Shown piece after piece: positions 19,127-36,949 of a DNA stretch of 64,000 nucleotides. The translations under genes were made by a program, and so were the position numbers. The notes beneath the pieces were generated by a model, which was not told the origin of the DNA, made no database searches, and worked only from the letters and a program-made list of their open reading frames with translations. Numbering within the stretch: position 1 is the first letter of the stretch; every line of letters begins with the position of its first letter. The stretch lies in assembly GCF_056746865.1 (NCBI RefSeq), contig NZ_CM163382.1. The stretch is one strand, 5' to 3'.

Positions 19127-19275
19127 CCCTGAGGGTGATTTACTGTTACCCTGAGGGTATTTTTTTATCTTCCCCGTCAATTTTACCATCACCCTTAGGG
19201 TAGATTTCCTCCCGATTACCATCACCCTTAGGGTTAATTTCCTTCCGGTAACCATTAGGCCTGAGGGTATGAAAA
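19127..19275. repeat. Five copies of an 11-bp near-palindromic motif ACCCT(G/T)AGGGT upstream of alpA
   Basis: taccctgagggtg, taccctgagggta, cacccttagggtag, cacccttagggtta, gcctgagggtatg within about 150 bp. Confidence 0.55.
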
Positions 19276-19337
19276 TATTCGTTATTTCTGTGCCATGATT
19301 ACCTCGTCAAATTGAGTAGACGTTATGAGGTAAATAG

Positions 19338-19535
19338 ATGTCAAATACGCTTATTCGTTTAACAGAAGTTCAGCGTAGAACTGGATATAGCAAGGCATGG
19401 ATTTATCGCCTTATGGGGCAAGGTAAATTTCCTGCATCAGTTAAAATTGGCTCGCGAGCGATTGCTTTCGTTGAAAGTGAAATTGACGAATGGATCAATC
19501 AGCGTATTGCCGAATCACGCGGAACGGCTGCCTGA
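19338..19535 (+). CDS. alpA: AlpA-family phage transcriptional regulator/excisionase
   Basis: 65 aa MSNTLIRLTEVQRRTGYSKAWIYRLMGQGKFPASVKIGSRAIAFVESEIDEWI, classic AlpA HTH. Confidence 0.85.
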   Translation: MSNTLIRLTEVQRRTGYSKAWIYRLMGQGKFPASVKIGSRAIAFVESEIDEWINQRIAESRGTAA

Positions 19536-19610
19536 TTAAATAGCTACGGGTTATTGCCCAAGCTATCCACTAGCAAATAAAAAGTAACTTAATTCGATAG
19601 CGGAGTTTTT

Positions 19611-20435: not shown

Positions 20436-20985
20436 ACCTGTCTTTTATGCCGGTCGCACTGAAATCTCTGTCATTAAATTCGATGACATTCAGGTGCGCA
20501 TAGTGAGTATCAACGGCGAGCCGTGGTTTGTTGGCGCTGATGTGTGTGCCGCGCTGGAAATCAGCAATGTTACTGATGCCGTTTCAGTTCTGGATAACGA
20601 TGAGGTAATGACCCTAGCTTTAACCGAGGGTCATTCCGGTAAGCGTGGTGGTGCCAGAAGCTGGAATGTTGTCTCTGAATCAGGTTTCTACAAACTGATC
20701 GCCCGCAGCCGTAAAGCTTCCACACCAGGCACATTTGCGCACCGTTTCAGTAACTGGGTATTCCGCGAGGTGATTCCTTCAATCCGCAAAACGGGGGGTT
20801 ATGGTGTTCCGTTTGCCATGCTGAATGATTTCAGTAAACGTCAGGCTGCATATCAACAGGAAGCCAGCAAACGCGGTTACAGGTTACAGCAATGCAAAGA
20901 GGCAAAAGATGCACTGGAACGAGAAGAGCGGGCGCTATGGCGTAAATATCAGCCTGATTTTCTGGAGGGTGAAAGCAATGTGTAA
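20428..20985 (+). CDS. Bro-N domain protein (prophage antirepressor-like)
   Basis: 185 aa; N-terminal IRIVSINGEPWFVGADVCAALEISN is the Bro-N signature. Confidence 0.75.
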   Translation: MRKPVFYAGRTEISVIKFDDIQVRIVSINGEPWFVGADVCAALEISNVTDAVSVLDNDEVMTLALTEGHSGKRGGARSWNVVSESGFYKLIARSRKASTPGTFAHRFSNWVFREVIPSIRKTGGYGVPFAMLNDFSKRQAAYQQEASKRGYRLQQCKEAKDALEREERALWRKYQPDFLEGESNV

Positions 20986-21153
20986 CGATCCGAACGTTAC
21001 AGAAAGAAAAAGCGCCCCGTTGCTGGATAACAGGCAAAACAAAGGCGACCGGGATAGGTCGCCAGTGGGAACAAAGGAAATCAAACGCATCGCCAACAAT
21101 GCCAGATTTGCGGCTGGTGGGCAATGTGATCAGTGTGCTGGCTTGCTGGTGGG

Positions 21154-21351
21154 CTATTCCTGCTCTTTAGCATCGCCATACTGCGATGTTTTCCAGGTAT
21201 GCGATTCCATTTTTGTGCGCCTGTACTCTTTTAAGAACTTCTCAAGGACAAACGCACATGGCGCAAATCTTTCCTGTTCTTGTTCGCTTACCGCATTTTT
21301 GCGTTGTTTTTTCCTGGATGAGGATAATTTCTTTAATGATTTGTCAGTCAT
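21154..21351 (-). CDS. Small basic protein (65 aa), paralog-like partner of 21409..21606
   Basis: ORF on strand opposite to neighbours; both small ORFs end ...AKEQE and share a duplicated 3' DNA segment. Confidence 0.35.
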   Translation of the reverse strand: MTDKSLKKLSSSRKKQRKNAVSEQEQERFAPCAFVLEKFLKEYRRTKMESHTWKTSQYGDAKEQE

Positions 21352-21408
21352 CGTAGATACCTGTAACCCTGTGCGCCACAGTTCACCGCACCACGGCGCT
21401 GGTGATGG

Positions 21409-21606
21409 TTACTCCTGCTCTTTGGCCTTCCGGCGCTGTTCATATTTTAATTTGCGTCCACAGGCATCTAAGACCCATGCGGAAAAATTAGCACTAGGAT
21501 TAGTTAATTTTTCTTGTTCAACACTGGCATCAATCCCATCTATAAGCTCGTGCGGGAATCGAATATTTTTCTTTGCTGATTTGTTGTTTGTGTTTCCGCT
21601 AGACAT
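21409..21606 (-). CDS. Small ribbon-helix-helix-like DNA-binding protein (65 aa)
   Basis: NIRFPHELIDGIDASVEQEK...FSAWVLDA resembles Arc/CopG RHH pattern. Confidence 0.4.
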   Translation of the reverse strand: MSSGNTNNKSAKKNIRFPHELIDGIDASVEQEKLTNPSANFSAWVLDACGRKLKYEQRRKAKEQE

Positions 21607-21810
21607 TGGTACACCTCACTTAAATGGATTTGATGGGCGCACACAATACAGCAAAAAAAGTGAGAAGTTAAGTATTGACATGTGCGCACACATGATTTTA
21701 ATCTGTGCGCAAGTTTGGGTTGCATTGCTCAAATTAAGCAACGCCCCGCAGTGCTCGCAACACATGCAGGGCGTCTAACCACCAACGATAGAAAGCGTAT
21801 CGAGGTAGCT

Positions 21811-22014
21811 ATGTTAAATCATACCACACACCCGCAAGGGCGGGACTCGCACAACCTGAATAAATACATCTGGCGTTTTATCGCCCTGAGCACCGCACAA
21901 CCACGCGTAATACACATCGAGGCCGCCAGCGAACAGGAAGCCCGTCAGCAATCCCCGGCTGGCTGCGTGATGGTATTTACTGCCCGCATCCGTCAGGGGG
22001 AATACTATGCGTGA
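21811..22014 (+). CDS. Small hypothetical island protein (67 aa)
   Basis: ATG 21811 after GAGG; MLNHTTHPQGRDSHNLNKYIWRFIALSTAQ... Confidence 0.4.
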   Translation: MLNHTTHPQGRDSHNLNKYIWRFIALSTAQPRVIHIEAASEQEARQQSPAGCVMVFTARIRQGEYYA

Positions 22015-22264
22015 TGAACGATTTATTCTTCTGGAGCAAAAATTCAGTGAAGCGCCAAAAAATGAAATTGATGCTCTTTTGCATATCGCGAATATGCTAA
22101 AAGTAGCAACGTTCCTTATAGTTTCGAATCTGGAGCATGAAACGGCGTTAGATATACTGAACAGTGCTGTCGATTATTCTGAATATATTGCCGAGGATAA
22201 ATACAGGCAATTACCAGATTTGTTAGCCCATAAATATAAAGAAGAACCTCACACCGGGAAATAA
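22007..22264 (+). CDS. Hypothetical protein (85 aa)
   Basis: ORF in operon-like series upstream of primase gene. Confidence 0.45.
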   Translation: MRDERFILLEQKFSEAPKNEIDALLHIANMLKVATFLIVSNLEHETALDILNSAVDYSEYIAEDKYRQLPDLLAHKYKEEPHTGK

Positions 22265-22266
22265 AC

Positions 22267-22569
22267 ATGAAGAAGATTAAATTTACTGGCTTAAATGCCA
22301 GCGGACAGACTCACCCGAAAATCAGGATCGGGGATATTTTCCGGGATAAATATGGTGACAGCGTGGTTATTAATTCCGTGTATGAACGGCACATTACATA
22401 CCGCCGCGCAGGGTACGACTATGACTGTGTGATGCCCGTTCATCAGTTCCGGCGTGATTTTTCACTGGTATGTGCAGCACCACGCAGTAAGCCCACCAGT
22501 AAAGAGAAAGCACGGGCAAATATTCAGGTAATAAAGAACATGATTAACGCATTCAGGGGCAAGAAATGA
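22267..22569 (+). CDS. Hypothetical protein (100 aa)
   Basis: ORF overlapping primase start; tight spacing with neighbours. Confidence 0.45.
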   Translation: MKKIKFTGLNASGQTHPKIRIGDIFRDKYGDSVVINSVYERHITYRRAGYDYDCVMPVHQFRRDFSLVCAAPRSKPTSKEKARANIQVIKNMINAFRGKK

Positions 22570-24692
22570 AACGCGCACCGAATTTAAAGCACCAGCCGAA
22601 AGACAAAATGACGGAGGTGATTATCTTTGCGGGTAGTGATGCCTGGGCACATGCGAAAGAGTGGAGCGAATGGGCCGGAAAGCATATTGCGGCAGATGAT
22701 ACACATCCAGTTATTCTTGGACCGGAACAACTGGCGAGTCTGGCAGACACGCAAATCATCGACAAAGGGCGCTATTACGTGCGCGTTTATCGTGCTGGTG
22801 AAATATCAGAGCAGCACCTTACACAGATAGCGACACTGCTTGCAGTGGCGGGTGTGAAGGAGGCGCGTTGCTACCGCAGCTTTGTTGATCAGCAGCCGGA
22901 GGACTGGACACCGCGCATGGCTGGACTGAAGGATGATGCGGAACGCGGTAACAGTCTGGTGATCAACCTTCCGGCGAAGACAAATTTCACCGGAAATTAT
23001 GATGACGAATTAAAGCCTCGTGTTGAAAGTCGCGTCGATGGTGTTTTCTGGGTAACGCCCAAAGTGGACAAGCAGTCAGGCGAAATTATCCGGCCTGAGA
23101 CGTGGTTATGTTCTCCGCTTGAACTACTGGGAACAGGAACAATCGGCAAAGAGCATTACCGCGTGATGCGCTGGAAAAAACCAGCAAACCATGAGGTCAT
23201 TACAATGGCGGTCCCGTGCGGAGGCATTGGTGACCGTGACGGCTGGCGGTTGCTGAAAGACCACGGCCTTAACGTGACGACCAACGGCAAATACAGGGCT
23301 ATCTTGGCTGACTGGATGCAGTTAAGCGGAAACCATGAGGAATGGCAGTTAAGCACAACAACGGGGTGGCATTTTGGTGCGTACATCATGCCGGATGGTT
23401 CGATCATCGGTGAATCAGAGAAACCCATCCTGTTTACCGGAAAAACTGCCGCTGTTAATGGCTATTCCGTGGCGGGAACAGCGGAGGGCTGGCGCGATAC
23501 CGTGGCACGGCTGGCTGGTGGTAATCCGTCCATGATGCTGGGTGTGGCGGTATCGCTATCTGCACCATTAATCGGGCTGGTGGGTGCTGACGGCTTCGGG
23601 GTTCATCTTTTTGAGCAATCATCAGCAGGTAAAACCACCACACAGAACATTGCATCAAGTTTATGGGGAGAGCCGGACGCGCAACGGCTGACCTGGTACG
23701 GAACGGCGTTAGGTATCGCCAACGAGGCCGAAGCACATAATGACGGGCTGTTACCCCTGGATGAAATAGGCCAGGCCGGAAACGCACGGGAGGTGTCCAC
23801 GTCAGCCTATACGCTGTTTAACGGTTCCGGGAAATTACAGGGGGCGAAGGACGGCGGCAACAGGGAGATAAAACACTGGCGTACGGTGGCAATCAGCACC
23901 GGAGAAATGGACGTTGAAACATTCCTCAAAACGGAAGGGATAAAAATTAAAGCGGGACAGCTTGTCCGTCTGCTTAACGTACCGATGGAAAAGGCCTCGC
24001 AGTTTCACGAATACAGCACCGGAAAGGCGCACGCAGACGCGTTAAAAGATGCCTGGACAGAAAATCACGGGGCGGCAGGTCGTGAGTGGGTTAAATGGCT
24101 GGCAGGCCACCAGCAGGAGGCAAAGGACGCGGTAAGGGCATGTCGCGAGCGGTGGCGCAACCTGATACCGGAGAGCTACGGCGAGCAGGTTCACCGTGTG
24201 GGGGAAAGATTCGCCGTACTGGAGGCCGCGCTTGTGCTTTCCGGTCATGTTACAGGCTGGGATGTTCAGGCGTGCCGTGATGCAGTTCAGCATAACTTTA
24301 ATGCCTGGGTGAAGGAATTCGGCACGGGCAACAGGGAATTTAAACAGATGGTTGAACAGGCTGAGGCGTTTTTGTCGTCGTTCGGGTTCAGTCGATACCT
24401 TCCCTATCCAAACAGCGACGAGCGTGATTTACCGATTAAAGACCTTGCCGGATACAGAAAGGGGAGTATCAGAAACGAAGATGACGAGTTCCGTTTTTAC
24501 ACGTTCCCGCATGTGTTTGAGGGTGAGATAGCACAGGGATTTAATCCGTCTCACTTTGCCCGCGCGTTGAGTGCAGCCGGAATGCTGGAAGCGGGAGGCG
24601 ACCGCCGTTACAAGAAAAAGGCGCTCGGCAGGATTGGCGGGAAGCAACATATTTTTTACGTGCTGATGTTCCAGCCTGAAGCAGAAGATTAA
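22566..24692 (+). CDS. Satellite/prophage replication protein, DUF927-type primase-helicase-like, Walker A present
   Basis: 708 aa; Walker A-like FEQSSAGKTT; immediately followed by iterons. Confidence 0.75.
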   Translation: MKRAPNLKHQPKDKMTEVIIFAGSDAWAHAKEWSEWAGKHIAADDTHPVILGPEQLASLADTQIIDKGRYYVRVYRAGEISEQHLTQIATLLAVAGVKEARCYRSFVDQQPEDWTPRMAGLKDDAERGNSLVINLPAKTNFTGNYDDELKPRVESRVDGVFWVTPKVDKQSGEIIRPETWLCSPLELLGTGTIGKEHYRVMRWKKPANHEVITMAVPCGGIGDRDGWRLLKDHGLNVTTNGKYRAILADWMQLSGNHEEWQLSTTTGWHFGAYIMPDGSIIGESEKPILFTGKTAAVNGYSVAGTAEGWRDTVARLAGGNPSMMLGVAVSLSAPLIGLVGADGFGVHLFEQSSAGKTTTQNIASSLWGEPDAQRLTWYGTALGIANEAEAHNDGLLPLDEIGQAGNAREVSTSAYTLFNGSGKLQGAKDGGNREIKHWRTVAISTGEMDVETFLKTEGIKIKAGQLVRLLNVPMEKASQFHEYSTGKAHADALKDAWTENHGAAGREWVKWLAGHQQEAKDAVRACRERWRNLIPESYGEQVHRVGERFAVLEAALVLSGHVTGWDVQACRDAVQHNFNAWVKEFGTGNREFKQMVEQAEAFLSSFGFSRYLPYPNSDERDLPIKDLAGYRKGSIRNEDDEFRFYTFPHVFEGEIAQGFNPSHFARALSAAGMLEAGGDRRYKKKALGRIGGKQHIFYVLMFQPEAED

Positions 24693-24715
24693 CTTCCCTG
24701 TGTGAGGTAAAAAGT

Positions 24716-24845
24716 TGCGGGTTATGCGGGTTATCCTGTGCATAAGTTAATTAACTGAATGATTAAAAAGGAAATTAATAACCCGCACGTAACCCGCAAA
24801 ACGGCAGTTATAACCCGCAAATGTGCGATTGTAACCCGCAAAATT
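24716..24845. repeat. Iteron cluster 1 (putative replication origin): convergent copies of TTGCGGGTTAT / ATAACCCGCAA
   Basis: gttgcgggttatgcgggttat then aataacccgcacgtaacccgcaaaacggcagttataacccgcaaatgtgcgattgtaacccgcaaa. Confidence 0.7.
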
Positions 24846-24902
24846 TCACTGTAAGAGTGTAAACAAGCGTAACTATCACGTTAAAACCGGAGAACAAACA
24901 GC

Positions 24903-25328
24903 ATGACGGCGCAAATATCAGCTTACGGGCGGCTGGTGGCTGACCCGCAGTTAAAGACCACCAGCAAGGGCACACAAATGGCGATGGCGAGTATGGCGGT
25001 CCCCCTTCCATGCAATCAGACAGATGACGGAACGGCGACGATGTGGTTATCCGTCCTGGCGTTTGGCAGACAGGCTGACGCACTGGCAAAACACCACAAA
25101 GGCGAACTGGTGAGCGTGGCCGGTAACATGCAGGTGAGCTGGTGGACGGGCCAGAACGGCGAAACGAGGCAGGGATGGCAGGTTATCGCAGACAGCGTAA
25201 TCAGTGCGCGAACGGCGCGACCGGGCGGCAAAAAAGGCCAGCAGGGGCAGGCTACTGATGCACTGAACAGGGCAAAGCAACAGACAGGCCAGCACGATGA
25301 TCCGTACGGGGACGGGATACCGTTTTAA
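24903..25328 (+). CDS. Single-stranded DNA-binding protein-like (OB-fold)
   Basis: 141 aa; pattern GRLVADPQLKTT...WLSVLAFGRQADALAKHHKGELVSVAGNMQVSWW...GETRQGWQV resembles SSB OB-fold core; Gly/Gln-rich tail ending DDPYGDGIPF like the SSB acidic tip. Confidence 0.55.
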   Translation: MTAQISAYGRLVADPQLKTTSKGTQMAMASMAVPLPCNQTDDGTATMWLSVLAFGRQADALAKHHKGELVSVAGNMQVSWWTGQNGETRQGWQVIADSVISARTARPGGKKGQQGQATDALNRAKQQTGQHDDPYGDGIPF

Positions 25329-25411
25329 TTCACAACAGCGAACAGAGTAATTACCCAGTGCGCCGTAAAGCCCCGTCCTTCAGGTCGGGGATATAAGGCG
25401 CGGTTTTCCAC

Positions 25412-25828
25412 CTAACTAGGTGTTTGCTGTTGTTCAATGTATTGGCGGATGATGGATATTGGCGCACCTCCGCAGCTACTGGCAAAATAGCTGGGACTCC
25501 ATAAAACGCCTTTGTAGTAATACCTGACTGCAATATCTGGTCGATCTCGTCGCAATAATCTACTCGATACGCCCTTGAGACTGTTCACCAGGGTGGATAT
25601 CGCCAATTTGGGAGGATAGTTAATTAGCAGGTGAACGTGATCTCGTTCTCCATCCATTTCAACCAGTTCAGCTTCAAAATCAGCACATACACTTGAAAAG
25701 TAAGTGCGTAGTTTTTCTATTGCGTCATGGTCAAAAATCTGGCGTCGGTACTTGGTAACAAAGACCAGGTGAACGTGCATCAGGAAGACACAGTGCCTTC
25801 CACGTCGGATATCGGTTTCTTTTTTCAT
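25412..25828 (-). CDS. tnpA: IS200/IS605 Y1 transposase TnpA
   Basis: Start at MKKETDIRRGRHCVFLMHVHLVFVTKYRR; HuH motifs HVHLV and DHVHLL; ends ...GGAPISIIRQYIEQQ. Confidence 0.88.
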   Translation of the reverse strand: MKKETDIRRGRHCVFLMHVHLVFVTKYRRQIFDHDAIEKLRTYFSSVCADFEAELVEMDGERDHVHLLINYPPKLAISTLVNSLKGVSSRLLRRDRPDIAVRYYYKGVLWSPSYFASSCGGAPISIIRQYIEQQQTPS

Positions 25829-25850
25829 AGGCCAAAGTATAATTTGGCAT

Positions 25851-27059
25851 ATGAAACGACTACAAGCTTTCAAATTCCAGTTAAGACCAAATGGAAAACA
25901 GGAGCGTGAAATGAGGCGCTTCGCGGGCGCATGTCGTTTCGTTTTCAATCGTGCTCTGGCGCTTCAGAATGAGAATCATGAGGCCGGGAACAAATATATT
26001 TCTTATGCAAAGATGACTTCCTGGCTGGTTGAATGGAAAAATGCTACTGAAACGCAATGGCTTAAAGATTCTCCCTCACAGCCATTGCAGCAGTCACTGA
26101 AAGACCTTGAGCGAGCCTACAAAAATTTCTTTCAGAAGCGTGCCGCTTTTCCCCGATTCAAAAAGCGGGGACAGCATGATGCATTCCGCTATCCGCAGGG
26201 TGTTAAGCTCGATCAGGAAAACAGCCGTATTTTTCTGCCGAAACTGGGCTGGATGCGCTACCGGAACAGCCGTCAGGTCACGGGTGTTGTGAAAAATGTC
26301 ACTGTCAGCCAGTCCTGCGGTAAGTGGTACATCAGTATTCAGACAGAAAGTGAAGTATCAACTCCGGTTCACCCTTCAGCATTAATGGTCGGGCTGGATG
26401 CTGGCGTGGCTAAACTCGCCACGCTGTCAGATGGCACGGTCTTTGAGCCTGTAAACAGTTTTCATAAAAACCAGAAGAAGCTGGCGAGACTTCAGCGCCA
26501 GTTAAGCCGCAAGGTTAAATTCAGCAACAACTGGCAGAAGCAGAAACGCAAAATACAGCGACTGCATTCCCGTATCGCAAATATCCGCAGGGACTACCTT
26601 CACAAAGTCACAACGACCATCAGCAAAAACCACGCAATGATAGTCATTGAGGATTTGAAGGTCAGCAACATGTCAAAGTCAGCCTCGGGTACGGTCAGCC
26701 AGCCGGGGCGCAATGTCCGGGCAAAATCAGGTTTAAACCGTTCGATACTGGATCAGGGCTGGTATGAAATGCGCCGTCAGCTTGAGTACAAGCAGCTCTG
26801 GTGTGGCGGTCAGGTGCTTGCTGTTCCGCCAGCGTACACAAGCCAGCGTTGCGCGTGCTGTGGTCATACAGCGAAAGAAAATCGCCTGTCACAAAGTCAA
26901 TTCAGATGCCAGGTATGTGGATATACAGCGAACGCCGATGTAAACGGCGCTCGTAACATTTTAGCGGCGGGGCACGCCGTTCTTGCCTGTGGAGGGATGG
27001 TGCAGTCAGGCCGCCCGTTGAAGCAGGAACCCACCGAAATGATTCAGGCGACAGCCTGA
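25851..27059 (+). CDS. tnpB: TnpB (OrfB) RNA-guided nuclease-like protein
   Basis: 402 aa; [17 protein letters not shown]...; C-terminal CxxC...CxxC zinc finger ([37 protein letters not shown]). Confidence 0.9.
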
Positions 27060-27265
27060 ACGTAGCAGGAATCCACGTCCTTCAGGGCGTGGAGGATGTC
27101 AAATATCAATGCGACGACTGGAATGTTCCAGGAAGGCACAGAGGCCACCGAAGCAACCGGATAATTTAGAAGACCTGAAACGGTCGCTTAAACGCACTGA
27201 AAAAGAAATGGGGATAGATGGGATCGGGAAATCAGTATGGCGTAACTACCAGAAGTAAGCACAGA
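27060..27265 (+). ncRNA. Putative omegaRNA (reRNA) scaffold at tnpB 3' end / IS right end
   Basis: By analogy with IS200/IS605 TnpB systems; structured region ending in hairpin GCCGGAGCAATCCGGC plus T-run. Boundaries not determined. Confidence 0.35.
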
Positions 27266-27289
27266 GCCGGAGCAATCCGGCTTTTTTTT
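27266..27289 (+). terminator. Hairpin plus T8 tract at IS right end
   Basis: gccggagcaatccggc followed by tttttttt. Confidence 0.5.
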
Positions 27290-27389
27290 GGCTGAAATCA
27301 ATCAATCTGTTTTTGTGATAGAAATATATTTATCTACCACTTTTTTCGATCAATAATGTGCATAATTTAGTCATTAAGAGGAAATTGCT

Positions 27390-27596
27390 GTGAATTGTAT
27401 TAACGACCTGAACACAGGCGATGTCAGAGGTGGTTCCGTTCATCTGGATGCACAGACCGTGATGCGCCTTAAGCAGTACAGAATCGACCATGTGAACAAT
27501 CACCCTGATCAGCCATTACCAGGCGTGGCGCAGATTGTCAGACATGCCGTAAACGCCTGGCTTAATCAGAATGGTTTTGCATCGGGGGGTGAGTAA
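27390..27596 (+). CDS. Small protein (68 aa), first gene of the novel operon; possible regulator
   Basis: GTG start 27390 preceded by AAGAGG; no recognisable family. Confidence 0.45.
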   Translation: MNCINDLNTGDVRGGSVHLDAQTVMRLKQYRIDHVNNHPDQPLPGVAQIVRHAVNAWLNQNGFASGGE

Positions 27597-27692
27597 TGAA
27601 TCGCTGGTACAGCATCAAAGCAGAGGGACGCCAATGTTATCTAACTCAGGTTTTATGAATTCTGACTCCCGATTCAAAATAGGAGGTTACTA

Positions 27693-30224
27693 ATGCCAGT
27701 CGTACCAACAGTATCCGGACGTCAGGTTGAGAGCCGTGGAGTTCAGTCAGCAGGCTTGCAGACGTTTTCTCAGCCAGGTATTGGTGATGCTTTTGTTCGG
27801 GCAGGGGCAGAGGCAATTGATGTTTTTGGTCAGGCAAAACAGCGTGCCAATATTGCCTTGATTCAGGAGGCATCCCTTAAACTCAGTCAGATAGGCAGTG
27901 ATCTGCTGAATAATCCTGAAACAGGATTGCTTAACCTGAAAGGGAAAAATGCTATTGGAAAAGGCCATGAGTATACACAGCAGTTTGATGCTCAGATCGA
28001 ACAACTGGCTATGTCGCTGCCGGATGAACAGGCTCGTAATGCTTTCATGCAGCAGGCGCAGCAGCAGCGTATTCAGTTCGCTACGCAGGCCGGGAGGTAC
28101 GAGATAGGGCAAATAAATGCCTACGAAGAAGGCCAGTTTCAGGCGACACTGCTGAATAATGGTAAAAATGCCTCAGCATTATATGGCGACAACGCAGCAT
28201 ACATATTGGCTAATACGCAAACTTTCCAGCAAATTGAGGATTACGGTATTGCGCATGGCTGGAGCGACGAGCAAATCCAGGCCAAGAAAATCGAGTTTAA
28301 AGAAGCAACAGCAAAAGCAACTGCTCAAAATGCTATTGGAGCAAACTATCTTCAGGTAAGACAGCAAAATGGCGAGTTAAGCGATACTGCTGCTGGATCT
28401 CGCCGTGCTGTAGCAGATAGTGGCTCTTCCGATCGTACCCGCGGTATACGCAACAATAACCCCGGCAATCTTGAATACAGCAAAACTAATCCGTGGATTG
28501 GGCAGACTGGTGATGATGGTCGCTTTGCCAAATTCGAAACCCCTGAACACGGTATTCGCGCGCTTGGTCGCAATTTGCTGTCGTATCAGCGTCAGGGTTA
28601 TGACACCATCAGCGAAATAATTAATCGCTGGGCACCGGCCAGTGATGATAATAAAACTGATGCTTATATACGGGCAGTATGTGCTCAGCTCGGTGTAACT
28701 CCTGACCAGCCGCTTGACGCATCAAATCCTGACACACTGAAATCTCTGTGCAAAGCAATTATTCATCATGAGCAAGGCAGTCAGCCGTACAGTGATCAGC
28801 AATTGGCCGCTGGCGTTAGTGCCGCACTGGGGCTTTCTCAGCTACCGACAAAAAATAAACGTTATACCGGTGTAGCCTGGTTCGATGCTTTAAGTGAATC
28901 AGATCAGGCCAGCGTGTTGCGACAGACGGATGCATTAGCCAGACAGCAGCAGGCTGAATATAGAACGATGCTCGAAAGCCGGGTTCGCGATGCAACGGCT
29001 GCGTATATGCGTGGCGTTGAATTTCCTAACCCGCCTGGTGAGGGTGAGTTCATTGCTGCTTATGGTGTCAGAGAAGGAAACCTGCGATATACCGAGTTCA
29101 GAAATTTGCAGATCGCCGGACAGTATATAGGCTCTTTCCGCAACATGCCGACAAGCAGCATTACCGCATATGTTGAGCAATTACGCCCGGATACTGGTGA
29201 GACAGGGGAGGGGTATGCGTCTCGTGCGGAGTTATTCGACCGGGTATCGGCGGCAGCCACGAAGGTAATAACCCAGAGGCAGAATAATCCGTTTAGTGCA
29301 GCGGTGGAAATCGGAGCCTATAAGCCGATCACCAGCAACAACCCTGACGACATCACTGCCGAGGTGGCTAACCGTTTCTCGTCGCAGGAAAGCTTACGCG
29401 CGTTGGGAATTAATGCCCCACTCCTCAACAGTGAAGAGGCGGCTGCGCTGGCACAGCAGGTGCGCGGCACTCAGAACGTTGACCAGACAATTAAACTGTT
29501 GCAGAGCATGGGGGAGAAGCTGCCTGCGCCAGCAATACGGCAGGTGGCATCTGTAATTGCTCCGAACAGTGCGGCAACAGCCTATTCTGCGCTGCTGCTG
29601 GGCACGCCGGATAACCAGTACGACAACACCAGGCCGACGATCCCATATAGTCAGTTCATCGGGTATAAGCCGACGATGAACAAGTACGACGTTGCAAAGG
29701 TTATTCTTTCCGGCGACCAACTACTGAATCCGACGAAGGCCATGAAGAATGCGGGCATAACTCCGGTACAGTTGCCGAGCGAAGATAAGATGAAAGACGC
29801 TTTCGACGAACAGGTAGGTAATGCATTTGCCCGTAACCCGCAGTTACGCCAGATCAGTTATAGCCTTTTCAAAGCCGCTTACGCAGGAATAGCTTATCAA
29901 TCTGGTGATGCCTCTACGGTAAGAACCAGTATGCCTGATACAGACATTGTAGCTGATGCCGTGAAGTATGCTACTGGCGGTATATACAATGGTTTTAATG
30001 GCGGCGACGTTGTAATGCCTTTTGGCATGGATAAATCTACTTTCAAAGATCGCTATACCACATCTGCGAAACAAGCACTGAAAGATGCCGGACTTAACGT
30101 AAATGCAGTGTCAAATTTCACGCCAGTTAATATCGGCAATAACCGGTATCGGCTTGTAAATGGTAGCGGACGCTGGGCAACAGATCCCAGAACCAATAAA
30201 GCTATTGTCGTGAGGGTTGAATAA
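27693..30224 (+). CDS. Large hypothetical protein P1 (843 aa), Q/A-rich, conserved-looking block RNNNPGNLEY...
   Basis: Strong RBS AGGAGG before ATG 27693; stop overlaps next start (TAATG). Confidence 0.8.
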   Translation: MPVVPTVSGRQVESRGVQSAGLQTFSQPGIGDAFVRAGAEAIDVFGQAKQRANIALIQEASLKLSQIGSDLLNNPETGLLNLKGKNAIGKGHEYTQQFDAQIEQLAMSLPDEQARNAFMQQAQQQRIQFATQAGRYEIGQINAYEEGQFQATLLNNGKNASALYGDNAAYILANTQTFQQIEDYGIAHGWSDEQIQAKKIEFKEATAKATAQNAIGANYLQVRQQNGELSDTAAGSRRAVADSGSSDRTRGIRNNNPGNLEYSKTNPWIGQTGDDGRFAKFETPEHGIRALGRNLLSYQRQGYDTISEIINRWAPASDDNKTDAYIRAVCAQLGVTPDQPLDASNPDTLKSLCKAIIHHEQGSQPYSDQQLAAGVSAALGLSQLPTKNKRYTGVAWFDALSESDQASVLRQTDALARQQQAEYRTMLESRVRDATAAYMRGVEFPNPPGEGEFIAAYGVREGNLRYTEFRNLQIAGQYIGSFRNMPTSSITAYVEQLRPDTGETGEGYASRAELFDRVSAAATKVITQRQNNPFSAAVEIGAYKPITSNNPDDITAEVANRFSSQESLRALGINAPLLNSEEAAALAQQVRGTQNVDQTIKLLQSMGEKLPAPAIRQVASVIAPNSAATAYSALLLGTPDNQYDNTRPTIPYSQFIGYKPTMNKYDVAKVILSGDQLLNPTKAMKNAGITPVQLPSEDKMKDAFDEQVGNAFARNPQLRQISYSLFKAAYAGIAYQSGDASTVRTSMPDTDIVADAVKYATGGIYNGFNGGDVVMPFGMDKSTFKDRYTTSAKQALKDAGLNVNAVSNFTPVNIGNNRYRLVNGSGRWATDPRTNKAIVVRVE

Positions 30225-32284
30225 TGTCTGATGTTTTTTCTTTGGCTCCAGAAGGTCAGGCATGGATTGACGACAAAACAGTTGCCAACCCAGCAAGGCC
30301 AGAAGACTACGATCCGACTCCCTTCCAGGGTTCAGGTACTGCACTTTTGAGCGGCGTGGCGGAGGGGGCTCTCGGTCTCGCGCAGTCTGCCGTCGGATTC
30401 AGCAAGCGTCTGATTAGCGATCCGGCATTTACCGCAGACGTGGCACCGACAGTTAATATTTTTCGGGAGATGTTCCCTGATGCTGACAAAACACTGAATG
30501 ATACATACGACACGATCGGAAAACAGTTACAGGATGCCCGCAGCTATGTGAAGCCTGATGCAGGCAGCCAGGGAATGGCGGCTGAGGTATTAAATGAGCT
30601 TGGTAAATTTGTTCCTGCAATCGGAACAACTATGTTTGGTGGTCCGCTCATCGGCGCTGCTACAGCCTTCAGTTCTACGTATGAGCAGTCCTATCAGGAT
30701 TTTAAAGGGAAGGGAGTAGACGAGGCTACAGCGCGTAACCTGGCAACGCAGCAGAGCCTTTTCAATGCTGTGGGTATGGCCTTACCCGCTGCCGTCGGCA
30801 CCACACTGGCAACGCGCATTGCCTCAGGTGTGGCAATCAACACCGGATTCGGTGGACTGAACCGTTACTCAGTAGGCGCAACACTGGAGGAAAAAGGCTA
30901 CACGGAGATGGCAAAACAGTATCGGGTATTTGACGGTCAGGCGATGTTAGTCGATGCCGTTTTAGGCGGGGTCTTTGGTGGCGTTCATCACCTGACTACC
31001 CATAATAACCATGATGGTACAGAGTCGAACATTTCTGCAGAAGAAATAAAATCAACTTTTGGTGAACATTATCAGCAATCTCCTGATGGTAACATTGAGT
31101 CAATGGTTCGTGATTTATCTGATTCAGGAGTAATAGAACTTATTAATGAACCAGCAATAAAAAATAGTGATGGAGAAATACTTCTGAATAAAGGTCATGT
31201 GACAGTAGCTTCCGGAAAAGAACCAATAATAAGAATAAATATTAATGGATTAAAAGACCATGAAGAACTGTTAGAAACCCTTCATCACGAGGCGCTTCAT
31301 CTTGAGCAGCGCCATTACCCTGACTGGAAGGCCAGAAAGCTAGCTAATGCTGTACTTAAATCTGCAAACAAGCATTCTGACTATCCTGAATTTGCATATG
31401 GGATGTCACAATATTATGAATATAAGAAAAGGGGTGAGTACCCTGAAACATATCCTGAGTGGTTGTACGCTGAAGAAGTTGCCGCACATGCAGTAAATCC
31501 ATCTCTAAAGACAAGCGTTTCATCATGGGAAAAAATTATTTCAGGTTTTAAAGCCTATATATTCAGATACAGTGGTATTCAGGTTGGAACCGTTACACCT
31601 GAGCAGTTACGGTTACTCGTAAGTATGCGTCTTCGCAATATGAAACTGGAAGCCGCAGTAGAAAAAGTTTTTGGTATCCGGGCGAGGGAAAGAATAAAAC
31701 CAAGCGATATTGATGCAGCCCACATTTTGAATGAGGGGCTTCATTACGATATTGAATCGTCACCAGTGCTTCATACCAGCAATGAGAGCATCAACAGCCA
31801 TGTTGACGCCATGGATGAAGCATACAGGCAACTTAATGATGGTCAGCCTGTAAATGTTGGGGGGATGGCGCGAGGGCTTGATGGTCCATTGCGATCAGAT
31901 ATATCTGATACTTACCAAGAGCAATACCATGAAATACAAAAGGTTTTTGAAGAAAATGGTGTCAGATACGAAACATCATCAGAGCCAATTAGTGAATCGC
32001 CTGTCCCTCGTGCTGAAAGTGCTTTCTCATCGGCTGGTGAACACAGAGGGGACATCAGCGTTGATCCAGATACAGGGCAGGTTCTCTCATCCAACAGCTA
32101 TGACCTTATGGCTGCCAGGGACATGGCTGTTGCCAATCCTGAGCTGACTATAGCTCACCCGGAAACCGGAAACCCGACAAAACTTTCTGATCTCCTGGCT
32201 GAGTTGGATGAACAGATTAAGACAGTCCAGAACGAATCGAAGGTTTATTCTGTAGCAGCAGCGTGCTTCTTGAGGAACCCATAA
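30224..32284 (+). CDS. Large hypothetical protein P2 (686 aa) with glycine-rich hydrophobic segments and an HExxH motif
   Basis: HEALH at nt 31286-31300; N-terminal third has repeated Gly/Ala-rich hydrophobic stretches; TAATG coupling at both ends. Confidence 0.8.
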   Translation: MSDVFSLAPEGQAWIDDKTVANPARPEDYDPTPFQGSGTALLSGVAEGALGLAQSAVGFSKRLISDPAFTADVAPTVNIFREMFPDADKTLNDTYDTIGKQLQDARSYVKPDAGSQGMAAEVLNELGKFVPAIGTTMFGGPLIGAATAFSSTYEQSYQDFKGKGVDEATARNLATQQSLFNAVGMALPAAVGTTLATRIASGVAINTGFGGLNRYSVGATLEEKGYTEMAKQYRVFDGQAMLVDAVLGGVFGGVHHLTTHNNHDGTESNISAEEIKSTFGEHYQQSPDGNIESMVRDLSDSGVIELINEPAIKNSDGEILLNKGHVTVASGKEPIIRININGLKDHEELLETLHHEALHLEQRHYPDWKARKLANAVLKSANKHSDYPEFAYGMSQYYEYKKRGEYPETYPEWLYAEEVAAHAVNPSLKTSVSSWEKIISGFKAYIFRYSGIQVGTVTPEQLRLLVSMRLRNMKLEAAVEKVFGIRARERIKPSDIDAAHILNEGLHYDIESSPVLHTSNESINSHVDAMDEAYRQLNDGQPVNVGGMARGLDGPLRSDISDTYQEQYHEIQKVFEENGVRYETSSEPISESPVPRAESAFSSAGEHRGDISVDPDTGQVLSSNSYDLMAARDMAVANPELTIAHPETGNPTKLSDLLAELDEQIKTVQNESKVYSVAAACFLRNP

Positions 32285-35040
32285 TGAAACAGGCATGTGT
32301 GGAAGCTATTGCGCAGACACTTGGTCGCCAGCCAAAGGCTGATGAGCTGAAAAATATTGAAGATCGTATCAAAGAAGCTGTGCAGCATGTGCACAGAAAG
32401 AATGCCAAAGAAGGCAAAAGTGGTATTCCTGATGCTCAAACATACATGGATGCAGCAGAACTGGTACGCCAGCGTGTGGTTCATGATGTGTACAAGAAAA
32501 GACAGCGTGTTGCCCAGAATGCGATCGCCATCAGTAAAATTACTGACACTCTCGATGCTAACATCCCGCCTGATCAGCAGACACCTGTTAATTTGCAGCA
32601 GTTTATTTTTGCTGGCCGACGATCGAGAGACAAAGCTGATATCTCCGTTACTTCTGCTGAAGAACTTGCAATTGGGGCATATCAGGACTGGTCCCGTCAG
32701 CTCAGTGCTGAACTTCTAAAAGCAGGTGATGACGTCCGCAAATTCTTCGAGCAGAGCAGGGCGCTTGGAGAGCAGCGGTTTCGGAGTGTATTCGACAGGC
32801 AGGCGGCAAAGTCTGCACAACTCCAGATCCTGAAAGAAATATATGGCGAAGATACCGGGAATCCCCTGGCGAAGAAAATTGCACAGATTTGGAAGGATGT
32901 AACAGGCCGTGTTCGTCATGAGATGAACGACAATGGCTTTGACATAGGCCTGCGAGAAGACTGGCATACGCCATATGTGGATGATGCTGACCTTATTCGC
33001 AATGCCGGGCGCGAAGAATGGCTGGCATCGTTACCAGTGGCAGAGCAAGCTACAGCACGTCTTTCAGGTCGCCAGCCACCGATTGAGTTTGCCCGCCAGA
33101 AATGGGTTGATGACGCTTACAACACGCAGGATCGCAGCAATTACGTTAATCCTGACGGCAGCATTATGAATGACGTCGAGTACCGTCAGGCACTGGAAGC
33201 GATCTTTGAAACGAAGGCCACTGATGGGGCAAACAAAATTGAGCCTGGTACATTTATGGGAGCCGGAGGAATAAAGAGCCGTGGTTCTCAGCACAGGGTG
33301 ATGGCGTTCAAGGATGCGCAGTCACACTTCGCCTATATGGAACGATACACTCAGCAGCCGCTGGTGGGGGTGATGATGTCGCACCTGCAATCATCATCCA
33401 GGGATTTGGGCGTCGTTAAAGCCTTTGGTCCGGACGCCGAAAGAAACTTTTCCCTGGTACTGGATCGCATCTATAAGCGCGCAGTAACAGGCGGGAAACG
33501 CAAAAAAGAAATGGAGGATGAGGCCAAATTAGTTGCCCGTATGTTCAACTCAATGGCTGGCCTAAATGGTGTCGCTTCATCGAGTGTGTTCTCTTCAGCA
33601 GTTGGTGGTCTGCGTAACCTGATGACCAGCGCCATGCTTGGCACCAGCGTACTGACAGCAACCAGCGACCAGGCAATTATGCGGGCAAATGCGCAGGCGC
33701 TGGGCTTTACCCGTGGTGGAATGCGGCTTTCCGTTAACACTATCAAAAACCTGTTTAGTGGAGATGCCAAAAAGGCGAATGCTGAACTCGGTCTGCTGGT
33801 GGATTCACATGCTGCTGTGGTTTCGAAAATGGGCGGGTTTGACTTGTCTCGCGGCATAACTGGCTGGTTCGCAGAGAAGACACTGAAGTGGTCCGGGCTG
33901 ATCGCTATGGACCGCGCAAACAAAGCGTCGTTTGGTCTCCTGATGTACAAAAACATTGGCGAGCTGACCAGAAAATTTAAGACGCTGGACGATATGAAAG
34001 GAACCGATAAAACCATTCTGGCTAACAAGGGATGGAGCAATGAGGACTGGGCCATCATGGCAGCGGCAGAACTCAGGCCGATGACTACTGCCGGGCATAT
34101 GGGGATGACGCCAGACGCGATTTACGCTGTGCCCGATAACGTAATAGCCGACATTATGGCAGACCGTATTACCCGGATTCGTGCCGGGAGTGAAAAGGCA
34201 CTGGCAGCCCTTGGAGATCTCCCTCCAGAACGCCTGAAACGGATGAAAGAAGCATTCGACGCTGAGGCTGAGCAGACCATCACGCGCATGATTCGTAATG
34301 CACGCGCTGAAGCAGCCCAGAAATTGCTGGGAATTACGCACGGTGAGATGACCAATGCTGTGACCACCGCTACGGGTATTGATACATATGCCCGTGATGA
34401 TGCTGGCGAGTTAATGAAGAGCTTCATGCTCTTCAAAACAACCCCATTTGCTGGATTTCGGCAACTTGTTAACAGAACACGGGATTTGGACACCGTTCCG
34501 GCCATTAAATTTCTGGCCTCATATATCGGGGGAACAACTCTTGCTGGTATGTTTGCGATCCAGATGAACAGTTTGTTAAATGGTAATGATCCGCTGGATA
34601 TGACAAAACCAACCACATGGGTTCAGGCTTTACTGAAAGGTGGTTCGTTCGGTATCTACGGTGATTTTATTTTCCAGGACCATACGCAATATGGCTCCAG
34701 CATCGGTGCCACTATGGGTGGCCCTGTGTTGAGCTTTGCAGAGCAGTTAACAAAATTACTGATTACTAACCCACAGAAGGCTCTACAGGGTGAAGAAACA
34801 TCATTCGGTGCCGATGCACTGAAAACAGCCCGCATGATCACCCCATTCGCAAACCTGTGGTATGCGAAAGCGATAACCAATCACCTGATATTGCAACAAC
34901 TTCAGGAGATGGCAAACCCTGGTTACAATGATCGAGTAAGGGACCGCGCGCAACGGGAGTTCGACATAACGAGTTGGTGGGAACCGGGTGCTATTGCGCC
35001 ACGTAGAGCACCGGATTTTGGAAAGGCGGTGGGGAACTGA
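32284..35040 (+). CDS. Large hypothetical protein P3 (918 aa)
   Basis: ORF 32263..35040; start taken at MKQACVEAIAQ (ATG 32284 overlapping P2 stop); Gly-rich hydrophobic segments toward C-terminus. Confidence 0.8.
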   Translation: MKQACVEAIAQTLGRQPKADELKNIEDRIKEAVQHVHRKNAKEGKSGIPDAQTYMDAAELVRQRVVHDVYKKRQRVAQNAIAISKITDTLDANIPPDQQTPVNLQQFIFAGRRSRDKADISVTSAEELAIGAYQDWSRQLSAELLKAGDDVRKFFEQSRALGEQRFRSVFDRQAAKSAQLQILKEIYGEDTGNPLAKKIAQIWKDVTGRVRHEMNDNGFDIGLREDWHTPYVDDADLIRNAGREEWLASLPVAEQATARLSGRQPPIEFARQKWVDDAYNTQDRSNYVNPDGSIMNDVEYRQALEAIFETKATDGANKIEPGTFMGAGGIKSRGSQHRVMAFKDAQSHFAYMERYTQQPLVGVMMSHLQSSSRDLGVVKAFGPDAERNFSLVLDRIYKRAVTGGKRKKEMEDEAKLVARMFNSMAGLNGVASSSVFSSAVGGLRNLMTSAMLGTSVLTATSDQAIMRANAQALGFTRGGMRLSVNTIKNLFSGDAKKANAELGLLVDSHAAVVSKMGGFDLSRGITGWFAEKTLKWSGLIAMDRANKASFGLLMYKNIGELTRKFKTLDDMKGTDKTILANKGWSNEDWAIMAAAELRPMTTAGHMGMTPDAIYAVPDNVIADIMADRITRIRAGSEKALAALGDLPPERLKRMKEAFDAEAEQTITRMIRNARAEAAQKLLGITHGEMTNAVTTATGIDTYARDDAGELMKSFMLFKTTPFAGFRQLVNRTRDLDTVPAIKFLASYIGGTTLAGMFAIQMNSLLNGNDPLDMTKPTTWVQALLKGGSFGIYGDFIFQDHTQYGSSIGATMGGPVLSFAEQLTKLLITNPQKALQGEETSFGADALKTARMITPFANLWYAKAITNHLILQQLQEMANPGYNDRVRDRAQREFDITSWWEPGAIAPRRAPDFGKAVGN

Positions 35041-35354
35041 TGACGAGAGATAAAATTGAATATATTGCTTCTCTTAAATATGAAGCTGAGAAATGGAGAA
35101 GGATTGGCGGGTGGGGAACATTAATATCACTCTCTGCTTTACTTATAGACTCCTGGTTCAGACATATTGATGCAGCATCATTACTTTTTGAATCAGCAGT
35201 ACTTGGTGGATTCATTTGCTGTTGGGGTGGTAATTATGATCGGGCGTCCAAACATAAGAGAGAACTTGACGCGATATGTTTTGCTTTATTCGGTAAGGAT
35301 TACGAAAGTTCTGACCTTGATATAATTGAATTCAACAAAACGGAACTATCGTGA
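35040..35354 (+). CDS. Small predicted membrane protein P4 (104 aa)
   Basis: ATGA overlap with P3 stop; two hydrophobic segments (GTLISLSALLIDSWF, AVLGGFICCWGG). Confidence 0.6.
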   Translation: MTRDKIEYIASLKYEAEKWRRIGGWGTLISLSALLIDSWFRHIDAASLLFESAVLGGFICCWGGNYDRASKHKRELDAICFALFGKDYESSDLDIIEFNKTELS

Positions 35355-35362
35355 CATGTCAC

Positions 35363-35388
35363 AGGCCGCTTTCGCGGCCTTGTTTTTA
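35363..35388 (+). terminator. Rho-independent terminator closing the P1-P4 operon
   Basis: aggccgctttcgcggcct followed by tgttttt, 9 bp after the P4 stop. Confidence 0.6.
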
Positions 35389-36054
35389 ACGAATGCCACC
35401 GCCGCCCGGGCGGGAATTCGCAGATAAAAAAGCACGCTGCACGGTTTTATTAATACTTATACCATTAGGATTGATCCTTCAATGGACAATCCTTCCATCG
35501 TGTGGCCAGCCATTCATATTCTTTGTCTTTTCTTCAGTATCGGCTTTGCATCTTCTACACCCTGAAAGATGTCGTTTTATGGTGTATCTGATGATTTATT
35601 CCCTAACAATAGATATTCGAAAAATTAATCAGTTAAAACAATTATTTGGATAATTTCAGGTAAAACTATCTTAATCTTCTGGTGGATCTCAATGCGTAGT
35701 GACGGTATCGGGATTAAGGGCGTGGATATTCGCGATATATGCCGCTACACCCCTCAACAGTAATAGATATGAGCTTTTCACGCTCTCCTTTCACTGCTGA
35801 GAACGGCAACAACGTGCCACAGGAACGCGCTGTAATCGATTCTGACGCACTTAATTGCGTTGGGTAATGGTTTTTGCCAGCCTGTGGGGGTAACTCTGTT
35901 TTATGAGGCTTTGGCTATAGTGCAAAAATACACTTTGTCTTGCCTCTCAATTTGATGAGACTGGAACGACAACAGGACAGACCACCAGCAACAGTTACCG
36001 TATTCAGCCGTTCTGTGGCACCAGTGGAACTATCAACCCCTGCTTTCAGCAATG

Positions 36055-36212
36055 TGTTTGCGGGTTATTTTGGGGCGTTTGCGGGTTATTTGGGATGTTT
36101 TGCGGGTTATGTGATGCTTGAATAATGAACAGTGTATTTTGCAACATATTGATACTAAAGAACAAAAAATAGTTAGCATACTAAGATAACCCGGTAACCC
36201 GCATAACCCGCA
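36055..36212. repeat. Iteron cluster 2: three direct TTGCGGGTTAT copies then three inverted ATAACCCGC copies
   Basis: Same 11-mer family as cluster 1 at 24716-24845, about 11.3 kb away. Confidence 0.65.
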
Positions 36213-36699
36213 CTGTTTTGTATATATATACGAAAAATTGCATTCAGGAGGGGGGGAGCGAAATCCCTACAATCCATTGCTTATGGGACCGCCCGCCTCG
36301 TCAAATTTTTACACCCGCGAAATAAAAAAATACTTCACGCTGGTGGGCATGATGCTGATATGGGAGGCTTCCATAACGCCACCATTCGGAACTATGCAAA
36401 TCTGCATAGAAAAGGGGATGCCTGATACAATACCCTCGCCCGATAAAATCACACCGATAAACTCATCTGCCACGAGTAGAAAGAGCGAACGAACCCGATA
36501 CGCAGTAATGCTTGTCGGGTACAGCTTTTTAAGGCGGCTGTAGATATCAGGCCATCCGTGATCATCCACCAGCGAGATAGCCGATAACGATGACGCATAA
36601 CCCTCAAGCGAGGGATAAATGTGTATAGAAATGTGTATAGAATTGATTTTAGAACTCGCAGGATTCGCGCTATTACTGGCCTTGTGTGATGTTGTATTG

Positions 36700-36717
36700 T
36701 TCCCTTCGCCCGCTCCA
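36700..36717. repeat. tRNA 3'-end remnant / right att repeat (TTCCCTTCGCCCGCTCCA)
   Basis: 18 nt consistent with T-arm/acceptor stem/CCA of tRNA-Gly (glyU-like) as I recall it; contains the 15-bp repeat shared with 16792-16806. No complete tRNA in the window. Confidence 0.55.
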
Positions 36718-36949
36718 ATTTATCTTCACCTCATCAACCTGCCATTTTTGTTGTATCTGATTTTCTATATTATCTTAATTCAATCGCTTCAGACTTTTCG
36801 CAATCGCCGTAATACTTCCCCATTTTTTTGTAAATAAAAGCGTTTACGCAATGCAATCCATTTGTAACAACCCAGGTAAAATACCTTATTTTCAAGTTGT
36901 TAAATAAGTGGTTATCTACGCTTTTAACAAACGATTGATGGAATCTTTT

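Follow-up and report, generated by a model that had tools for sequence, protein, structure and literature searches.

The Enc34 endolysin contains an all-helical peptidoglycan hydrolase domain that corresponds to NCBI family PHA02564, and in which Glu131 is catalytic and Trp79 and Tyr95 are functionally important (PMC8943055). The muralytic activity of this domain was measured on permeabilised E. coli, Pseudomonas and Hafnia cells, and activity on Gram-negative peptidoglycan has been measured for both Enc34 ORF39deltaC and M4Lys (PMC8943055). The Enc34 authors described the domain as distant kin to GH73 and GH23 and inferred N-acetylglucosaminidase chemistry (PMC8943055). In the model for phage T7, murein is cut by a transglycosylase at the N-terminus of gp16, which allows a channel of gp14, gp15 and gp16 to cross the periplasm; a core stack is also cited for epsilon15, and the murein-hydrolase module is able to move between ejection proteins (PMC8954989). 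Mass spectrometry of NO16 virions has also revealed an Enc34-like protein. Here, a 64,000-nucleotide stretch of DNA (NCBI RefSeq assembly GCF_056746865.1, contig NZ_CM163382.1; hereafter the window) was analysed, which carries at 27693–30224 on the plus strand an open reading frame (ORF) for an 843-residue, gp15-like protein. The combined evidence makes it probable that a conserved block in this protein is half of an Enc34-type glycosidase domain residing in a podovirus ejection protein, and that the cassette to which the gene belongs was captured by an island resembling phage-inducible chromosomal islands (PICIs).

The block had been pointed out in a first-pass annotation of the DNA, at 28441–28640, as a discrete globular domain that could not be assigned. 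The peptide, RNNNPGNLEY...INRWAP, is present as an exact string match at residues 253–315 (28449–28637, plus strand), and an assignment is now possible from matches to PDB sequences and from the predicted fold. In a phmmer search of the PDB sequences, 9VVP chain L ('Gp29', 1295 residues, of which residues 3–151 are matched) was found with an E value of 5.5e-39, and residues 248–368 of the 843-residue protein matched 7q47_A with an E value of 2.3e-16; both of these strong matches fall within residues ~248–403. An AlphaFold2 model of residues 240–400 shows the compact fold that the term globular domain implies (predicted local distance difference test score, pLDDT, of 86; predicted template-modelling score, pTM, of 0.81), with order at residues ~249–379 and a beta-hairpin followed by five helices. 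When this model was compared by Foldseek with solved structures, the chains of 7Q47 were the sole significant fold matches (E value of 3.4e-11, template-modelling score of 0.72–0.74), the next match having an E value of 0.58. The predicted structure has the all-helical fold of the Enc34 catalytic domain, and the catalytic signature of Enc34 (Glu131, Trp79 and Tyr95) is present in it. In a HMMER alignment on Enc34 numbering, Trp79 corresponds to Trp313 (INRWAP; codon at 28629–28631, plus strand), Tyr95 to Tyr325 (TDAYIRA; codon at 28665–28667, plus strand) and Glu131 to Glu360 (IHHEQGS; codon at 28770–28772, plus strand), the predicted catalytic Glu. The location proposed for the domain was thus correct, whereas its C-terminal boundary was placed too short: Glu360 sits 45 residues past the end of the block, which comprises only the N-terminal ~55% of the domain, and the true unit spans residues ~249–379 (28437–28829, plus strand). 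Based on the aligned residues and the predicted fold, the domain is classified as a member of the Enc34-type (PHA02564) peptidoglycan hydrolase family.

Conservation across homologues had also been proposed for the block, and it is borne out both by near-invariant motifs in 60 sequences and by dN/dS ratios (nonsynonymous relative to synonymous substitution rates) of 0.02–0.06. The domain is matched by 2033 database clusters at E values of 1e-3 or lower. When the domain was aligned with 59 homologues from the database, the signature motif RGIRNNNPGN (residues 250–259; 28440–28469, plus strand), GIRA, RWAP, Y and E.G proved (nearly) invariant; Trp313 is nearly invariant, Tyr325 occupies the invariant column Y86 and Glu360 the nearly invariant column E121. 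The RGIRNNNPGN motif is also kept across the gp15 homologues of Uetakeviruses, Enc34 and Kayfunavirus Gp29, and the equivalent of Glu360 is retained in every gp15 homologue that carries the domain. At the amino acid level, the block is 94% identical to its counterparts in both Enterobacter Uetakevirus BUCT554 and phiV10, with near-saturated synonymous sites (dS of 0.8–1.6). In the comparison with BUCT554, dN/dS is 0.022 for the block and 0.088 for the whole gene, and in that with phiV10 the corresponding values are 0.064 and 0.40. No other segment of the gp15-like gene is as constrained as the block. The first-pass annotation had allowed that the block might lack conservation in homologues or belong to a purely structural domain; it is instead strongly conserved, and the family to which it is assigned by alignment is enzymatic. 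By tblastn, the domain was found elsewhere in Chi-like and Enc34-like endolysins, Pseudomonas JBD-type phages, non-tailed Vibrio phages and some Microviridae.

The protein around this domain is, as judged by alignment, a homologue of epsilon15 gp15 and phiV10 p18, the family that comes first among the three large ejection proteins of these podoviruses. A single PHROG family (phrog_992) covers its entire length (E value of 4e-289), and it shares 64% amino acid identity with phiV10 p18 and 78% with its counterpart in BUCT554. Its RefSeq name is 'hypothetical protein', the family label in RefSeq and PHROG is 'head protein', and two further matching PHROG families, phrog_1044 and phrog_873, are both labelled 'endolysin'; phiV10 p18 and epsilon15 gp15 are annotated as 'head protein' and 'similar to PM2 structural protein P5'. 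A hydrophobic segment was not found in the 843 residues. The description of the protein outside the block as low-complexity and rich in Gln and Ala holds for its N-terminal third (20–37% Gln plus Ala over the first 245 residues) and not for its C-terminal 420 residues (12–23%). The content is ~32% over residues 361–420 and falls to 8% in the 60-residue segment that holds the block. The gene is also a mosaic: its first 1.5 kb is 85–92% identical to E. coli Uetakeviruses, and the remainder is closest to BUCT554. Relative to the E. coli Uetakeviruses, dS is 0.24 over the N-terminal 245 residues and at least 0.96 elsewhere, and the low value in the first part therefore points to a recent exchange with local phages.

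To place the protein in its genomic setting, one genome per bacterial species was scanned, which yielded nine related loci (designated by L numbers where they must be told apart). Eight of the nine are complete Uetakevirus prophages with genes in the order portal, protease, capsid, two tail genes, two small internal virion proteins and the gp15 homologue, followed by two more large proteins and then the tailspike. In E. coli prophages, the gene directly upstream of the gp15 homologue is named 'virion core protein, T7 gp14 family' by NCBI. The N-terminus of 9VVP Gp29 is 99% identical by tblastn to ORFs of Kayfunaviruses, which are T7-like phages, and these ORFs are annotated as 'DNA ejectosome component' or 'internal virion protein with endolysin domain'; the source of 9VVP was identified indirectly through this search, as the literature gave no origin. 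Further evidence comes from a domain exchange. In a Superficieibacter prophage (L015, 10001–12691), the gp15 homologue aligns with the window protein on either side of the slot, which holds a Pfam SLT domain (PF01464, E value of 1.9e-10, residues 235–334) instead of the Enc34-type domain, and some E. coli prophage gp15 homologues are likewise annotated as SLT. The SLT profile itself does not match the 843-residue protein. A Buttiauxella homologue (L008, 10001–12838) has ~100 extra residues immediately before the domain. Because SLT replaces the Enc34-type domain in the same position, the slot appears to be selected for a murein-cleaving module regardless of its fold, and this swap is the strongest functional argument.

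The analysis shows the homology and predicted fold of the domain, its conserved catalytic residues, the constraint on its sequence, the gene order around it, the exchange with SLT, and the structure and mobility of the island described below; enzymatic activity, virion packaging, timing of action and any helper dependence are inferred. The protein would be carried within the capsid and, when a cell is infected, be expelled by way of the short tail, and its Enc34-type domain would cut murein glycan strands locally, with Glu360 as the general acid and Trp313 and Tyr325 lining the groove. Such a local opening of the wall would let a trans-envelope channel of ejection proteins reach the inner membrane, a job that would equal that of the N-terminal SLT domain of T7 gp16 with a different fold. 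The island most likely supplies its ejection proteins to particles made by a co-resident Uetakevirus helper.

The island that carries the gene occupies 16792–36718 (19.9 kb) and is bounded by two copies of a 15-nucleotide direct repeat, CTTCGCCCGCTCCAA, at 16792–16806 (left attachment, or att, core) and 36704–36718 (right att core), both on the plus strand. This repeat matches the 3' end of tRNA-Gly. A tyrosine integrase (16931–18184, plus strand; Pfam Phage_integrase and Arm-DNA-bind_3) has 32% identity to Uetakevirus integrases and is followed just 3' by an int-alpA RNA motif (18229–18296; Rfam RF02996, 46.9 bits, above the gathering score). Further along lies a DUF927 primase/helicase-like protein (22566–24692, plus strand; Pfam PF06048, E value of 1e-46) with 61% identity to a Pectobacterium homologue. 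The annotated order in the island is tRNA-Gly, integrase, helix-turn-helix (HTH) regulator, AntA/AntB, Bro-N, Icd-like, DUF4222, DUF927, SSB, ProQ/FinO and PerC, after which come ORFs of 843, 686, 918 and 104 residues and then chromosomal genes. A Pfam scan of the window confirms the integrase, AntA, Bro-N, DUF4222, DUF927 and SSB domains. Capsid, portal, terminase, tail and lysis genes are not annotated in the intact E. coli island, and Pfam domains of these kinds were not found in the backbone ORFs of the window. The element combines an integrase and att sites at a specific location with a replication module and regulators, and lacks capsid, terminase, tail and lysis genes, which is the make-up of a PICI satellite. 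A reading of the locus as a complete prophage was rejected, as the neighbouring genes are of PICI type and the lambda-like replication genes of phiV10 are absent. Because phiV10 has lambda-type O/P-like genes, no replication genes are common to the island and Uetakeviruses. Likewise, pac- or cos-like DNA common to the island backbone and Uetakevirus genomes was not found.

The four ORFs form a cassette with sharp limits. A leader (27261–27615, plus strand) contains the terminator of the upstream operon, an AT-rich region, a ribosome-binding site and a 68-residue ORF (27390–27596). DNA homology to Uetakeviruses begins at 27682, 11 nucleotides 5' of the gp15-like ATG, and stops at 35408, at the late-operon terminator; the 59 nucleotides at 35350–35408 are 96.6% identical to the late-operon terminator region of phiV10. 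The gp15-like gene is translationally coupled to a gene for a gp16-like middle ejection protein of 686 residues (30224–32284, plus strand; phrog_1145), which is 88% identical to BUCT554 gp16 in its N-terminal part and 78% identical in its C-terminal part. The third gene (32284–35040, plus strand) encodes a gp17-like large ejection protein of 918 residues that is 89% identical to that of BUCT554 and 27% identical to phiV10 p20, and that is a RefSeq coding sequence in identical islands. Both the gp16-like and gp17-like proteins have diverged from those of phiV10, with 27–30% identity. The last gene (35040–35354, plus strand) is a 104-residue ORF with one hydrophobic segment, a homologue of which (82%) sits after gp17 in an Erwinia dacicola Uetakevirus prophage (L012), and a terminator stem-loop at 35363–35380 (plus strand) closes the cassette. 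By these homology boundaries, the segment captured by the island coincides exactly with the final four genes of the virion operon. Its nearest counterpart overall is that of BUCT554, apart from the first 1.5 kb of the gp15-like gene.

The cassette is neither confined to this copy nor tied to one integration site. The island-specific junction is found in 44 of 5426 complete E. coli genomes, and the same cargo, with four intact ORFs, lies behind a different integrase at yicC|dinD in strains MS 196-1 and '20'. All four cassette ORFs are intact in each of three other annotated island copies, a comparison of three copies showed the gp15-like gene to be intact in each, and island alleles of this gene share 91.5–99.9% nucleotide identity. 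The ninth related locus, from Pectobacterium zantedeschiae (L011), has a DUF927 primase (61%) and SSB, followed by intact gp15-, gp16- and gp17-like genes with identities of 49%, 42% and 73%, respectively; its gp15-like protein retains the domain and all catalytic residues. Homologues of portal, capsid, tail, terminase and endolysin genes were not found beside the L011 cassette. Between its primase and its cassette (4772–8191 of L011) are QueC-like, nucleoside 2-deoxyribosyltransferase-like and KilA-N genes, which may constitute a DNA-modification or defence module. A sibling island in the ST131 strain 751 shares the backbone and the ~350-bp leader with its 68-codon ORF, and its slot holds a prohead-protease/capsid fusion, a tail assembly gene and DUF1441. 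The island family therefore has a conserved cargo position for helper-type virion genes. The leader is 87–89% identical in sibling islands (its counterpart in L016 lies at 12970–13345), and its presence in each suggests a common cargo slot and possibly a shared late-expression control. In addition, a second gp15-like locus is present in 16 of the 36 E. coli genomes with island alleles and in ~7% of other genomes (~7–10% of all). The odds ratio for this association is 10.7 (p about 8e-10), a calculation that ignores phylogeny and in which the second locus was identified in some genomes only; complete phiV10-like head-tail regions were confirmed in the island strains GF43 and Ec-RL2-1X.

The gp16-like protein differs from its phage counterparts by an island-specific insert at residues ~257–490 (30992–31693, plus strand), with an HExxH motif (HEALH) at 31286–31300, and DNA homology to phages is interrupted at 30993–31694. 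The Pectobacterium locus L011 has a homologous insert of ~230 residues (about 13270–14000) with the motif HEAFH and 32% identity over 251 residues (E value of 4e-32). The insert is absent from the four aligned phage or prophage homologues (BUCT554, L007, L008 and L009) and from 50,697 phage records, and it has zero Pfam matches and zero detectable homologues among 1.84 billion protein representatives. Its AlphaFold2 model is poor (pLDDT of 58) and the fold matches of this model are meaningless. Based on the HExxH motif, the insert may be a metalloprotease module.

Other features were observed in the window. The segment to the left of the island (1–16798) is a type I-E CRISPR-Cas/iap region, in place of which other strains have tRNA-Gly and xdh-ygeV, and a tRNA gene was not found in the window; this junction therefore implies that DNA was deleted or rearranged up to precisely the att core. 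Tandem direct repeats occur 3' of a 267-residue ORF at 19125–19248 (two copies of 17 nucleotides and two of 33) and near the right end of the island at 36056–36097 (two copies of 21 nucleotides), and these may be binding sites for a regulator or the integrase. An insertion of the IS200/IS605 family of insertion sequences (25355–27102, plus strand), delimited by blastn against intact islands, contains TnpB at 25851–27059 and a minus-strand ORF at 25412–25948. A weak HgcC-like RNA match (E value of 0.0085, below the gathering score) at 26992–27115 overlaps the right end of this insertion.

Several observations weigh against a murein hydrolase that is borne by an ejection protein and encoded on a functional island, and some of them are shared by the alternatives. 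Scans of the whole 843-residue protein against Pfam and NCBIfam returned zero families (Pfam at E values up to 1), and the protein consequently has no curated family name. The relation of the Enc34-type domain to the lysozyme superfamily, a weak and permuted similarity, was not recovered by the fold searches. Genetic work on epsilon15 reportedly assigned gp15 and gp17 to the tail tube, not to the core. The bond specificity of the family is also unsettled, as the M4Lys data pointed to endopeptidase activity as well (PMC8943055). On the side of the island, the IS200/IS605 insertion replaces 983 bp in the window (ProQ/FinO, a hypothetical gene and part of PerC), PerC is frameshifted in every island inspected, and a sigma-70-like promoter was not found upstream of the cassette. 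Finally, the gp15 homologue of a Klebsiella pneumoniae ATCC 13883 prophage (L014) has RLAP for RWAP, a Trp-to-Leu change at the position of Enc34 Trp79, and retains the catalytic Glu and the Tyr. This substitution, together with the 'head protein' label and the finding that the hydrolase activity of T7 gp16 is dispensable under many conditions (PMC8954989), could speak for a degenerate hydrolase fold that is kept for packing or contacts and no longer catalyses. Such a purely structural domain is very unlikely, given that the Glu, the Trp, the Tyr and the NNNPGN loop are common to active endolysins and these virion proteins, and that an SLT domain with its own catalytic motif in the same slot argues for selection for murein cleavage, not shape. 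If catalysis is retained, it could in principle serve lysis, with the domain degrading the wall from within late in infection as that of Enc34 does; its nearest solved relative is an endolysin, a label that phrog_1044 and phrog_873 share. However, the domain is internal to an 843-residue protein in a virion-protein operon and not beside holin or spanin genes, of which the island has none, and the protein does not have the C-terminal transmembrane domain of Enc34-type endolysins. Uetakeviruses moreover own a separate GH19 endolysin, with a holin and Rz/Rz1 spanins in the lysis cassette, which disfavours a lysis role for the gp15 domain, and we give this explanation hardly any credence.

Two other explanations concern the cassette as a whole. 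The damage to the neighbouring island genes by the insertion and to PerC, the lack of other virion genes in the island and the missing promoter-like site would be expected if the cassette were a dead remnant of a Uetakevirus prophage that became fused to an unrelated island, its domain now without function. Decay of this kind is improbable, and its standing was lowered because the cargo was found at another integration site and, in diverged form, in Pectobacterium: the cassette moves together with the island, whose two sites are each served by a different integrase, and three genes are intact beside a DUF927 primase and SSB in L011. In addition, the four ORFs are intact in three other copies, the alleles span a range of nucleotide identities, the cassette boundaries are exact from just 5' of the ATG to the operon terminator, and both islands carry an insert that no phage has. 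A cassette that is maintained may, alternatively, be directed against phages and not serve transfer of the island itself: its products, the hydrolase included, would be made by the host as decoys or poison subunits and either disrupt the assembly of Uetakeviruses or prevent superinfection. Satellites often interfere with their helpers, EcCIMP1 gives superinfection immunity (PMC11773190), the gp16- and gp17-like proteins are divergent relative to their counterparts in E. coli Uetakeviruses, and the HExxH insert could act as a protease on proteins of the helper. On the other hand, PADLOC defence models match none of the cassette proteins, the exchange over the N-terminal 245 residues fits co-assembly with helper parts equally well, and interference and self-transfer can coexist; an anti-phage role in place of transfer is therefore regarded as a minority possibility, on the unlikely side. 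An Enc34-type murein hydrolase within an ejection protein, on a cassette captured by a PICI-like island, remains the preferred interpretation.

This interpretation replaces the labels 'hypothetical', 'head protein' and 'endolysin' with a specific assignment, a putative virion-borne murein hydrolase of the Enc34 type with named residues and corrected domain limits. Domains of this type have been systematically missed because neither Pfam nor NCBIfam models them. The exchange of SLT for the Enc34-type domain constitutes a clean natural experiment and shows that ejection proteins are modular. At the level of the island, it is conceivable, although we would put it forward only tentatively, that the element represents a new variety of satellite that parasitises epsilon15/phiV10-like podoviruses and, where others have genes for capsid remodelling or packaging, encodes an ejectosome made up of gp15 with the Enc34-type hydrolase, gp16, gp17 and a small membrane protein. 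Its gp16 would have acquired the putative metalloprotease module with the HExxH motif, which is specific to the island and absent from sequenced phages. A satellite of this kind would place ejection proteins of its own in particles that the helper has built. This could ensure that its DNA enters cells, for instance those in which the helper is blocked at DNA entry, could deliver an effector alongside the DNA, or could spoil helper virions. Theft or remodelling of capsids, tails and packaging by satellites is already known. If this proposal is true, DNA entry would join the steps that satellites control, and the island would provide a natural system for asking which features of ejection proteins are helper-specific.

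Comparison with the described systems shows which of these elements have precedents. The Enc34 ORF39 (PDB IDs: 7Q46 and 7Q47; PHA02564) and M4Lys of the Salmonella phage BSPM4 are lysis proteins of ~26 kDa; each has a transmembrane domain at its C-terminus and is the product of a lysis cassette, whereas the domain described here is internal (residues 249–379) to an 843-residue virion protein without a hydrophobic segment. Kayfunavirus Gp29 (9VVP chain L) contains the closest sequence relative of the domain and is also a large ejection protein, with an Enc34-type domain where T7 gp16 has SLT. The domain of Gp29 lies at the extreme N-terminus of a 1295-residue gp16-type protein, whereas here it follows a 245-residue region rich in Gln and Ala in a gp15-type protein, and the two proteins do not align outside of the domain. 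The SLT domain (GH23) of T7 gp16 has the same proposed job, cleavage of murein for DNA entry through a highly cross-linked wall (PMC8954989), but belongs to a different fold family, and the chemistry is probably that of a hydrolase here as opposed to that of a lytic transglycosylase. Epsilon15 gp15 and phiV10 p18 are orthologous to the gp15-like protein, with full-length alignment, 64–78% identity and the same operon position; the window copy differs in being a mosaic encoded by an island without a capsid gene. The backbone of this island resembles those of EcCICFT073 and EcCIMP1 in its integrase, int-alpA RNA, antirepressors, Icd-like protein, DUF4222, primase, SSB and PerC, and it is like enterobacterial PICIs in its size (~18–20 kb), its att repeats and its lack of lysis genes. 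Structural genes are reportedly absent from E. coli PICIs, including EcCIMP1 (PMC11773190), and described PICIs, among them capsid-forming ones, have either none or genes for capsid, packaging or redirection. A satellite with an ejection-protein cassette was not found in a search of the full-text literature, the coverage of which was incomplete and does not prove novelty. The domain family, its job and the type of protein that carries it are thus already known, and what is unusual is a capsid-less island that carries an ejection cassette only.

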